A DNA stretch of 64,000 bases from Octopus vulgaris. Taxonomy: Eukaryota. The notes under the pieces are model-generated. The model saw only the letters and a program-made list of their open reading frames with translations. It was not told where the DNA came from and did no database searches. The stretch is from NCBI GenBank assembly GCA_951406725.2, contig OX597816.1, forward strand, positions 47,306,001-47,370,000. The letters run 5' to 3'. Positions within the stretch are counted from its first letter, which is position 1. Each line of letters opens with the position of its first letter. Position numbers and translations under genes: made by a program. Positions 56,651 through 63,527 of this stretch are shown piece by piece.

Positions 56651-57403
56651 TAAGAAGCATTGGATGTGGCATGCAAGAGAGACATCTGCACTGGTATGGT
56701 CATGTACTACGGATGGATGAGGGGAGATGTGTGAAGAAGTGCCACTCCCAAACAGTTGAAGGAATCTGGGGTAGAGGTAGACCCAGGAAGACATGGGATG
56801 AAGTGGTCAAGCATGACCTTCGAACGTTGGGTCTCACAGAGGCAATGACGAAAGACCAAGACCTCTGGAGATATGCTGTGACTGTGAAAACCTGACAAAT
56901 AACGTGAGTTCATGGCTGTTTCCTGCACCAGCTTCACATGAAGCTCCAGCCCATCCAAAGTACCCTGGATCGCAGGACAGCCTGCTGTGCTTACCTTGGA
57001 TTATAGGGCGACCTGCTGTGCTTGAGGAGACCTATTGAGTCAAGTACATCAACATCAAAAAACCAAATGGAAATTGTAGTTGCGATACCTGTGCCAGTGG
57101 CATGTAAAAAGCACCATCCGAACGTGGCTGATGCCAGCGCCACCTTGACTCGCTTCCATGTCAGTGGTATGTAAAAAGCACCAACTGATCGTGGCTATGG
57201 CCATCCTCCTCTGGTACCTGTGCCGGTGGCTCGTAAAAAGCACCCACTACACTCATGGAGTGGTTGGTGTTAGGAAGAGCATCCAGCTGTAGAAACACTG
57301 CAAGATCAGACTGGAGCCTGGTGAGGCCTCCTGGCTTCCCAGAGCCTGGTCGAACCATCCAACCCATGCTAGCATGGAAAACGGACATTAAACGATGATG
57401 ATG
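56651..57403 (+). mobile_element. 5'-truncated RTE-clade LINE
   Basis: QERHLHWYGHVLRM..GRGRPRKTWDEVVKHDL..LWRYAV*, 3' UTR, (GAT)n tail. Confidence 0.9.
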
Positions 57404-59641: not shown

Positions 59642-60357
59642 GCATATGCATATATATATATATATATTATGTATACATATGTATATATATTATATATATA
59701 TTATATATATATATTATATATATATATTATATATATATATACACACACACACATACATACACATATATAAATATATACACACACATATATACATCTATAT
59801 GTACATACACATATGCATACACACACACTAACACATACACATGTACTAACATAAAACGAACATGAACATGTATTTATTAGGTTACATGGTGTACAGATGG
59901 CATGTAATAAATGTGGCATGCTTAATATTGGAAATGCCATGTTCACAAACTGAACACCTGAATTAAGGAAGACACTCATGCAAATATTACTTCTGTGCAA
60001 AAAAAATAGTAAGAAGACATAAGCAGCATATCTCAGTTATCATCAAAACACCACGAATTATGTATGTATATATATATATATATATATAGTTATGTGCTAA
60101 TCAGTGGTTTTACACACTCATACACACACACATGCAGACATGCACATATATATATATATATATATTTGTATGTATGAATGTATGAATTTGTGCATATATT
60201 AATATGTGTGTGTGAGTGTGAGTATATATACAAATTATGTAACAGGAGAAAAGTATATTTATTCAAAATTTCATCGCTCTGCAATTGTTTCAGCAGCAGT
60301 AGTAACAGCTGCATCCATCAATACATGCCTACACACACACACTTGTAAACATATGAA

Positions 60358-60458
<101 letters not shown>

Positions 60459-60720
60459 CTACCTATATATATATATATATATATTTATATATGCATATGT
60501 ATATATATATATACTTGTGATATTTTGTTGTTTTCCCTCCATCTGAATTATTTTTGAGTAAGCACTTTCAGGGAGATTCTTCTTAAAGTTGTAGAAATGG
60601 CTAAATAAAAATTTTTTTTGGCTGCTATTTCTAAAAATTTCAGTATGTGGCAAAGTAAATTATTTTACTGAGACCTTAGTTATATAAACTAATATATATA
60701 TATATATATATATCTATATA

Positions 60721-60813
<93 letters not shown>

Positions 60814-61019
60814 AAATAGATGTGTGTATTTTTCCCTTGTTAATAATTAACACGGAAAAACTATATAAATAGTTACCAGGGTAGCAAAAAATCACACAAG
60901 TAAAAAGGGTGTAACACCTTGTTTTTAAAGGTAGAAACTCCAGTTTTACTTGAAATATTTTGTATGATATATATAAATAGATAAATGGAGTTAAACGCAG
61001 GTGTTATTCAAATTCTTTT

Positions 61020-61108
61020 ACTTCCGACACATGTTTCGAAGATATCACTAGTATTATTTCAAAGGAATAAAATGGTGTAAAACAATGTAATCTTCTCTTC
61101 AGGGAAAT
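61020..61108 (-). ncRNA. Type I hammerhead ribozyme, canonical core
   Basis: atttcc-CTGAAGA-gaagat..atcttc-GAAA-catgtg-TC-ggaagt; all three stems pair; GUC triplet. Confidence 0.88.
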
Positions 61109-61358
61109 GAAGAAATATAACTCGTCAATAAGACATTTTAACAGAATATGATGGATATGTATAGTGATTAACTGAATGCTATTAAGCTTTTTCAAAATAA
61201 CGTTATAGGATATAATGTCAAAGGTAGCCTATAGAAAGAGGGGGGATATATATTTATATAGTTATGTGCTCATCAATGGTTTTACACCCCTTCCATACAT
61301 GCATACATGCACATATATATATTTGTATGTATGAATGTATGAATCTGTGCATATATTA

Positions 61359-61395
<37 letters not shown>

Positions 61396-61515
61396 TATAC
61401 CTTTGATGTTATATCCATAACGTTTTTTTGAAACAATCTTAATAGCGTTCAGTTAATCACTATACATATCCATCATTTTCTGTTAAAATGTCCTTCTGAT
61501 GAGTTTCATTTCTTC

Positions 61516-61604
61516 ATTTCCCTGAAGAGAAGATTGTATTGTTTTACACCATTTTATTCCTTTGGAATAATACCAGTGATATCTTTGAAACATGTGTTGG
61601 AAGT
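61516..61604 (+). ncRNA. Type I hammerhead ribozyme, partner copy
   Basis: atttcc-CTGAAGA-gaagat..atcttt-GAAA-catgtg-TT-ggaagt; two C-to-T changes at CpG sites. Confidence 0.8.
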
Positions 61605-61637
61605 TAAAGAATTTGGATAACACTCACATTTAACTCC

Positions 61638-61701
<64 letters not shown>

Positions 61702-62182: not shown

Positions 62183-62219
<37 letters not shown>

Positions 62220-62221
<2 letters not shown>

Positions 62222-63527
62222 TCATCATCATCATCATCATCATCGTTTAACGTCTGCTTTCCATGCTAGCATGGGTTGGACGGTTCAACTGGGTCTGGGA
62301 AGCCAGGAGGCTGCGCCAGGCCCAGTCTGATCTGGCAGTGTTTCTACTGCTGGATGTCCTTCCTAACGCCAACCACTCCGAGAGTGTAGTGGGTGCTTTT
62401 TATGTGTCACCTGCACAGGTGCCAGACGAGGCTGGCAAACGGCCATGATCGGATGGTGCCTTTTACGTGCCACCTGCACAGGTGCCAGACGAGGCTGGCA
62501 AACGGCCACGATCGGATGGTGCTTTTTAAATGCCACCAGCACAGAGGCCAGTCGGGGCAGCGCTGGCAAAGGCCATGTTCGGACGGTTCTCTTACATGTC
62601 ACCAGCACTGGTATCTCAGCTACAATTTCCATTGATGTTGAAAGATTTCGATTTCGATTTTGATTTTCACTTGCCTCAACAGGTCTTCACAAGTAGGGTT
62701 TGTGTCACAAGAAGGAACGGTATGCATAAGTGGGCTGGCTACATCCCAGGTAGAGGTTACGGGTTATGGTCTCACTTGTCCTGCTGGGTCTTCCCACGCA
62801 CAGCATACTTCCAGAGGTCTCGGTCTCCGGTCATTTCCTCAGTGAGACCTAAAGTTCGAAGGTCGTTCTTCACCACCTCGTCCCAGGTTTTCCTGGGTCT
62901 ACCTCTTCCCACAGGTTCCCTCAACCGCCAGGGTGTGGCACTTTTTCACACAACTATCTTAATCCATTCTCGCTACATGACCATACCAGCGCAAATGTCT
63001 CTCTTGCACACCAGAACTGATGCTTCTTAGGTCCAACTTTTCTCTCAAAGAACTTACACTCTGTCGAGTATGAACACTGACATTACACATCCATCAGAGC
63101 ATACTGGCTTCATTTCTTGCAAGGTTACGCATATCCTCAGCAGTCATGGCCCATGTTTCACTGCCTGTAGCATGGCTGTTCGTACACATGCGTCAAACAG
63201 TCTGCCTTTTGTTCTGAGCGAGAGGCCTTTTGTCACCAGCAGAAGTAAGAGCTCTCTGAACTTTGCCCAAGCTATTCTTACTCTAGCAGTTACACTTTCA
63301 GCACACCTGCCCCCGCTACTGACTTGGTCACCTAGGTAACGGAAGCTATCAACTACTTCTAGTTTTTCTCCCTGGAATGTGGCGGAAGTTGGTCTCTGAG
63401 CATTTTCAGTGTTTATTGCTCCTGAGCATCTGCCACATATAAAAACTATCTTCCCAGTTAGCCTTCCTTTGACATTGCTGCACCTCTTATGTGTCCATAG
63501 CTTACACTTGGTGCATCTTATAGAGTT
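62220..63527 (-). mobile_element. 5'-truncated RTE-clade LINE, pseudogenised
   Basis: LEVVDSFRYLG..AWAKFREL..GSETW..WYGHV..GRPRKTW with a frameshift near 63166 and in-frame stops; 3' UTR and (GAT)n tail. Confidence 0.92.

Follow-up and report, generated by a model that had tools for sequence, protein, structure and literature searches.

The two hammerhead motifs in the 64-kb window (the whole stretch of Octopus vulgaris DNA that was analysed) are, with high confidence, copies of the pLTR ribozyme of a high-copy Penelope-like element (PLE). They lie in two 5′-truncated copies of the element placed back to back in a (TA)n microsatellite, likely through one insertion in which both cut target strands primed reverse transcription, and they are predicted to be silent, with the ribozyme buried by its own antisense. 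The features are listed in Table 1.

Hammerhead motifs in the window

The motif at this locus is, judged from its sequence, a real hammerhead of the dimer-type metazoan form, and its cleavage is predicted. In the minus copy, positions 61108-61103 pair with 61025-61020 to form stem I (6 bp, one of them U-G), CUGAAGA at 61102-61096 and GAAA at 61037-61034 form the core, and 61095-61090 pair with 61043-61038 to form stem II (6 bp, with a G10.1-C11.1 pair). Stem III consists of A-U, C-G and A-U pairs with a 2-nt UG loop, and the triplet is GUC. The original prediction of a minus-strand hammerhead with a full core, 6-bp stems I and II and a GUC triplet was therefore correct in every position, and the descriptor scan placed the cut where it had been predicted. 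The type I core (C3-A9, G12-A15.1 and U16.1-H17, with helices I-III) is present in both window copies. In the plus copy, the GUU triplet and the G10.1-U11.1 pair are both CpG-type C-to-T changes, as had been proposed.

Table 1. Coordinates of the locus features and of the youngest copies of the family.
Feature	Position	Strand	Description	Basis
Type I hammerhead	61108-61020	minus	intact core, GUC triplet, predicted cut 61026/61025, extended helix II, self-complementary stem III	descriptor scan and folding
Second hammerhead copy	61516-61604	plus	intact core, GUU triplet, G10.1-U11.1 wobble, predicted cut 61598/61599	descriptor scan
Long arm	60813..61249	minus	5′-truncated pLTR of Hydra-like Penelope element, reaches far 3′ terminus (site 2, ~+205 to +211 nt past predicted cut) at (TG)n/(TA)n microsatellite	
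Short arm	61398..61643	plus	5′-truncated pLTR, stops at near 3′ terminus (site 1, ~+45 nt past predicted cut), into (TA)n	
Non-element spacer	61250..61397	plus	148 nt, 81% identical to local flank 60078-60223	
Flanking DNA	60074..60223	plus	likely template of spacer	
Left microsatellite	60690..60812	no strand	(TA)n/(TG)n, part of insertion target	sequence
Right microsatellite	61644..61700	no strand	(TA)n/(TG)n, part of insertion target	sequence
Youngest-subfamily U4C copies	L157, L158, L166-L195 (e.g. G000:C1:75008000-75015000)		U4C, GUA, palindromic stem III, G-U closing pair, intact 778-codon ORFs	

The two strands of stem II in the minus copy are separated by 46 nt, which had been described as a loop of about that size. 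The length stands, and folding together with the comparison of subfamilies indicates that the insert is mostly an extension of helix II, with a conserved inner helix of 4-5 bp, rather than an open loop. The minus copy carries two private changes, both of which weaken this extended helix. The 2-nt loop of stem III had been taken as the mark of a minimal form that works as a dimer, and this agrees with our results: stem III and its loop are self-complementary over 8 nt (predicted duplex energy −6.0 kcal/mol), and a two-copy helix model of the hammerhead scores −18.7 versus about −4 per monomer. The two-copy score and the self-complementary stem III are in line with activity as a dimer.

According to the available portion of PMC4209133, the metazoan PLE hammerheads and minimal hammerheads (min-HHRs) share with the present motif the type I form, a long helix II, a small palindromic helix III and presumed dimer activity, and were found to be inactive as monomers and weak as dimers. 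The motif described here differs from the min-HHRs of that portion in its 6-bp stem I, its retained 3-bp stem III and its long helix II insert, and in our present reading it has no bulged base before stem II.

The motif is extremely unlikely to be AT-rich DNA that happens to resemble the hammerhead consensus. The results that would fit such a chance origin are that Rfam, which had been proposed as a check of the original prediction, gave no hammerhead in the 64 kb at the gathering score and none among 35 weak matches down to E 10 on 801 nt, and that the folding energy of a single copy was no better than that of shuffled sequences (z 0.31). The Rfam miss is likely due to the long helix II insert and the tiny stem III. 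Against chance, the descriptor scan of the 64 kb returned these two motifs only, 0 of 60 dinucleotide-type shuffles gave a match of equal stringency, the subfamilies differ by compensatory changes (below), and the motif is placed in a pLTR, as in published Hydra PLEs. A candidate second hammerhead starting from CUGAUGA at ~61496 was dropped by eye, as it has neither stem I nor stem II and was missed by the descriptor scan.

Two opposite-orientation copies of another interspersed repeat (56769-57244 and 62212-63030), with internal tandem units of 63-67 nt, lie 5.8 kb apart and bracket the hammerhead locus. This repeat may be an RTE-type or SINE repeat of octopus.

The repeat family and its parent element

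The arm that carries the hammerhead is a dispersed repeat. A first look gave 3117 candidates; with the self match set aside, the 40 that were scored were 92-95% identical to the arm. The 23-nt 3′ half of the ribozyme had 365 exact matches in the genome versus 0 for the reversed control. The copies have fixed 3′ ends and ragged 5′ ends, and other copies carry, upstream of the hammerhead, coding sequence for RT motifs and a GIY-YIG-type end. From 266 matches we obtained 218 distinct copies, comprising 88 of the window subfamily, 48 of a sister subfamily and 82 of a young subfamily, a sample that favours query-like copies.

Two copies, L157 and L158, contain open frames of 778 codons with RT and C-terminal GIY-YIG motifs. 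Partial tandems with hammerhead-bearing pLTRs were found at L061, L158, L159 and L160, and that of L061 has the order pLTR-ORF-pLTR with a hammerhead in each pLTR. The element unit is ~2.9 kb long, and the pLTR-to-pLTR distance in L158 is 2863 nt. The RT and endonuclease were assigned from motifs read against PMC8557442. A Pfam search with the 775-aa protein gave no family at E 0.1, Pfam searches with protein fragments gave weak GIY-YIG matches (E 0.011-0.014, below the cut-off), and a PDB sequence search with the element protein matched no solved structure. In a representative protein library there were 8224 relatives at E 0.001 or better, the best of them 35-41% identical, and among those with a name, Octopus and Argonauta proteins came nearest.

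The family has much in common with the Hydra-clade PLEs described in PMC8557442, which include Hydra-1_Obim of Octopus bimaculoides: a single ORF with RT followed by a C-terminal GIY-YIG; DKT instead of DKG; CxxC and CxH beside a conserved E and N, without CCHH (from a motif scan and by eye); a unit shorter than 3 kb; 3′ junctions in (TA)n; a canonical type I hammerhead near the 3′ end; and an inverted, 5′-truncated partner. Hydra-1_Obim itself has, by eye, another N-terminus and other hammerhead stems, and is a separate family. The octopus element described here also differs from the Hydra clade in that its N-terminal motif is RWL where the clade has RWK, in its 46-nt helix II extension compared with the 3-10-nt loops of the listed Hydra hammerheads, and in a one-sided tail of ~150-170 nt compared with 30-40. 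Furthermore, L158 (2296-4620) and older copies have no CxCx5C linker ahead of the endonuclease, whereas 51 of 54 near full-length relatives do. Judging from these motifs, the parent is a Hydra-like PLE family, and because the linker is missing, we do not file it as a full member of the Hydra clade. The copies without the linker still end in (TA)n, which argues against a requirement for the linker in microsatellite targeting. A Neptune reading of the protein motifs was dropped when compared with the description in PMC8557442.

A description of the family was not found in a literature search. It may be in the supplements or repeat library of PMC13282606, a study that reports 31 Penelope-like families in O. 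vulgaris and that, in the portion of its main text available, makes no mention of hammerheads.

The alternative that the repeat is a non-autonomous retrozyme or SINE-like element, circulating as a ribozyme-cut RNA circle, is very improbable. Most sampled copies are indeed short and without an ORF, and bioRxiv 10.64898/2026.07.22.740005, as far as its accessible text goes, ties animal retrozymes to PLE pLTRs, the type I hammerhead of the non-LTR retrozymes being related to those of the pLTRs. In contrast to those retrozymes, no head-to-tail array of short monomers was seen in the fetched loci, and the copies described here are truncations of an autonomous element: their 5′ ends spread continuously and, in longer copies, into the ORF, and their 3′ ends lie at two places away from the cut site (given below). 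Of the 88 5′ ends mapped within 200 nt, 2 were at 0/+1 of the cut (L059 and L027), where 2.4 were expected within 5 nt, which is not significant.

L085 holds, at ~232, a compact type I hammerhead that is unrelated to the present one; it has a GUC triplet and a stem III of 5 bp and belongs to another family.

Inverted pairs and the insertion that may have formed them

The original prediction that the hammerhead faces its own antisense was borne out, as the arms at 60967-61226 and 61398-61657 are 87% complementary over 260 nt and lie 171 nt apart. The minus arm extends to ~60813, which is ~170 nt beyond the extent of the plus arm. The unique part of the spacer between them had no other match in a genome search.

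This inverted hammerhead pair is the usual insertion form of a PLE. When the first 100 of the 506 listed matches to the U4C form of the motif (below) were counted by hand, there were 24 loci with a minus-then-plus order within 5 kb and 0 with a plus-then-minus order, and the first 100 of the 365 listed matches to the window's own motif contained 4 minus-then-plus pairs. The arms of divergent junctions are separated by 25 nt or less in 92 of 132 rows. Mapping of the 3′ termini on 88 older and 80 young copies showed that copies end about +45 to +52 nt (site 1) or +204 to +211 nt (site 2) past the predicted cut, and (TA)n or a related microsatellite nearly always follows. The two termini (window 60813-60980; L166-L225) are ~155 nt apart; both are AU-rich and resemble (TA)n over 3-4 nt.

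The two termini are combined in a regular way. Of 47 inverted pairs, 40 had site 1 in one arm and site 2 in its partner, 7 were of the 1/1 type, and 0 were of the 2/2 type, with 46% mixed pairs expected (p 4e-8); this count was made on 152 merged loci, with 30 sister-subfamily loci left out, and at least 2 of the 7 site 1/1 pairs (L060 and L164) are split BLAST hits that terminus mapping shows to be mixed. The window follows the same rule of one long and one short arm, with the minus arm at the far end and the plus arm at the near end.

Similar arrangements have been published. PMC8557442 describes inverted pLTRs that stand head to head and have a tail on one side, as does the portion of PMC3846280 available, with a 31-nt tail, and the corresponding portion of PMC4209133 reports opposite-strand motif pairs 100-700 bp apart in Schistosoma. 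For PAc in vitro, the accessible part of PMC11167929 reports that both target strands are cut and extended and that RT starts at two internal sites. As far as these parts of PMC3846280 and PMC11167929 go, the insertions have in common with ours the head-to-head arms, the tail on one arm, the two internal 3′ termini and the AT-rich target. They differ in that the termini described here are at AU-rich spots with (TA)n similarity and lie ~155 nt apart, and in that their junctions are direct or palindromic whereas the window has a flank-derived spacer.

These likenesses suggest an insertion in which both cut strands of the target DNA would prime reverse transcription. Site 1 would presumably serve one strand and site 2 its complement, and the two resulting cDNA ends may then have been joined after an excursion of 148 nt onto nearby flanking DNA.

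The arms themselves are 5.1% and 8.3% from the subfamily majority, which would give them an age of roughly 14-23 million years by a rough transfer of the scale in the available text of PMC13282606 (0.09 = 25 My). They are 11.7% apart and have 0 shared non-majority alleles, in comparison to 1-16 shared in the 8 other pairs or tandem units tested, and so two source RNAs or two events are possible. It could thus be that the same element inserted twice, independently or from two template RNAs, at a single (TA)n hot spot, and that the spacer is a separate local duplication; we consider this unlikely, although it is the most serious of the alternatives. In addition to having no derived allele in common, the arms are further apart than the median pair of subfamily copies (10.2%) and differ at a site that is polymorphic in the subfamily (A in 26 of 74, T in 47 of 74), and a long non-element spacer is rare. 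On the other hand, the orientation and the combination of site 1 with site 2 match those of single-event pairs, the 5′ truncation points of both arms are within ~20 nt of each other, and flank-templated spacers were also found at L049:1066-1220 and L124:1378-1489, in a set of 17 junction rows whose gaps measure 26-400 nt. The sources of such spacers lie 150-750 nt beyond the 3′ end of one arm, and the spacer is in direct orientation in the window and inverted in L049 and L124.

Two other inverted arrangements were seen. A young pair at L159:1164-1736, directly upstream of an ORF, has two canonical hammerheads in arms that are 99% identical and is a cleaner example than the window. The loci L204 and L205 are identical element ends with identical flanks, inverted and 3.3 kb apart, likely a segmental inverted duplication and not an insertion.

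Decay of the locus and divergence of the ribozyme among subfamilies

The hammerhead core is kept in 57 of the 88 copies of the window subfamily, and 26 of the 88 are as intact as the minus copy. Departures from the subfamily majority amounted to 3.3% at non-CpG core positions versus 4.2% in the loop (Fisher p 0.26) and 11% at CpG positions. Therefore, the core decays no slower than the loop, which is neutral decay. The family has hundreds to thousands of copies, and the minus copy, old and without an ORF, is not special among them.

In a read-through RNA from either strand, the antisense arm is made first, and the predicted hairpin pairs 84 (minus copy) or 88 of the 89 hammerhead nucleotides. 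Forcing the hammerhead fold in such an RNA is predicted to cost 109 (minus) or 118 (plus) kcal/mol; the hairpin that would enclose the ribozyme is thus predicted to be ~110 kcal/mol more stable, by folding energies that ignore tertiary contacts and proteins. Even with the antisense absent, the predicted probability of the hammerhead fold with its natural flanks is about 3e-5. The neighbour is antisense only, so the locus has no dimer partner. Although the minus copy had been put forward as the best experimental target, an old relic in neutral decay that would be buried in its read-through hairpin is a poor one, and the young tandem elements and the U4C ladder (below) are better targets.

Three RNA runs, probably from another species, were compared with 60830-61645 and gave 85, 90 and 48 reads, none of them 99% or more alike; 61250-61277 had no coverage, and read ends did not accumulate at the cut. 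Against a young element, the same runs gave 33, 39 and 27 reads, all 90-95% alike. Given their probable origin, these runs carry no weight for or against transcription or editing of the locus.

The locus might instead have been exapted and retained for the host as a regulatory unit, either an antisense-silenced ribozyme or a dsRNA source that feeds editing or small RNAs. This would agree with the intact minus core and with the long hairpin that would form if the region were transcribed. We regard it as highly unlikely: intact cores are expected under neutral decay, both arms have private changes, an equal layout occurs at dozens of sampled loci, and no host ORF was evident in the window among stop-to-stop frames of at least 150 aa.

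The comparison of subfamilies gives evidence, drawn from sequence changes, for past selection on the hammerhead structure in the parent element. Compensatory changes were found in stem I (C-G to U-A), stem II (U-A to C-G) and the inner helix (U-A to A-U), together with shifts to or from wobble pairs; they were counted on related subfamilies and represent few independent events. The 15 core-adjacent positions had 0 changes between subfamilies over 17% divergence (p 0.06 alone). In the parent, the self-complementary stem III would let the ribozyme act as a dimer and cut a tandem precursor RNA, although probably at a low rate or aided by protein.

The GUU triplet of the plus copy is present in 45 of the 48 sister-subfamily copies and is thus a natural triplet in this family, not disabling by itself; many Hydra-clade hammerheads likewise cut after U (PMC8557442). 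Copies of this sister subfamily (L126-L155), in which GUU is fixed, frequently have inverted partners, and some are 97-99% alike.

In the young subfamily, 506 exact matches had U4C compared with 426 that had the canonical core, and an independent run had the T-to-C change at the U4 position in ~57% of contig depth. Of 170 aligned copies, 26 were dropped as truncated or distant, and a tree of the other 144 nests the changes in the order U4C, GUA, palindromic stem III, U11.1 and, finally, a stem I that has lost its last pair; the branches are short, and their supports are 0.77-0.94. The U4C clade contains 36 of 38 U4C copies and one canonical copy, divergence falls along this ladder from 3.6% to ~1%, and the intact-ORF copies L157 and L158 are in the most changed group. 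Changes in the young subfamily fell in the 15 core-adjacent positions in 2 of 13 cases, with no significant excess (p 0.18), which fits relaxed selection.

We tentatively suggest, as a reading that falls somewhat short of even odds, that this lineage records a hammerhead tuned down or abandoned while the element spread: from canonical to U4C, then from GUC to GUA, with a perfect palindromic stem III, G10.1-U11.1 and a shortened stem I, the most changed copies being the youngest. In the part of PMC3088659 available, a viroid U4C variant has much lower activity in vitro and is still sufficient in vivo; this, and the stronger dimer that a perfect palindrome would give, argue against loss of function.

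The window locus is an ordinary old PLE relic with a real hammerhead, of a new family and an already known kind. As debris of that kind, it has little weight in itself. The use of the family lies in the question of what PLE hammerheads do: their role is called unclear in PMC8557442, where mere parasitism on PLEs is allowed, and in the accessible text of PMC11167929, hammerhead mutants did not block insertion in vitro and cleavage was protein-dependent. The three subfamilies are natural variants (GUC, GUU or GUA; U4 or C4; two stem III forms) for which copy counts, ages and intact ORFs are available, and they allow cleavage rate to be compared with success in vivo, while the regular long and short arms are a genomic test of two-strand priming. 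If the tentative reading of the U4C ladder is true, the family would be a natural allelic series in which ribozyme cleavage is dispensable or costly for the spread of a PLE in vivo, and one that also targets (TA)n without the proposed targeting zinc finger, priming each strand at its own site ~155 nt apart.
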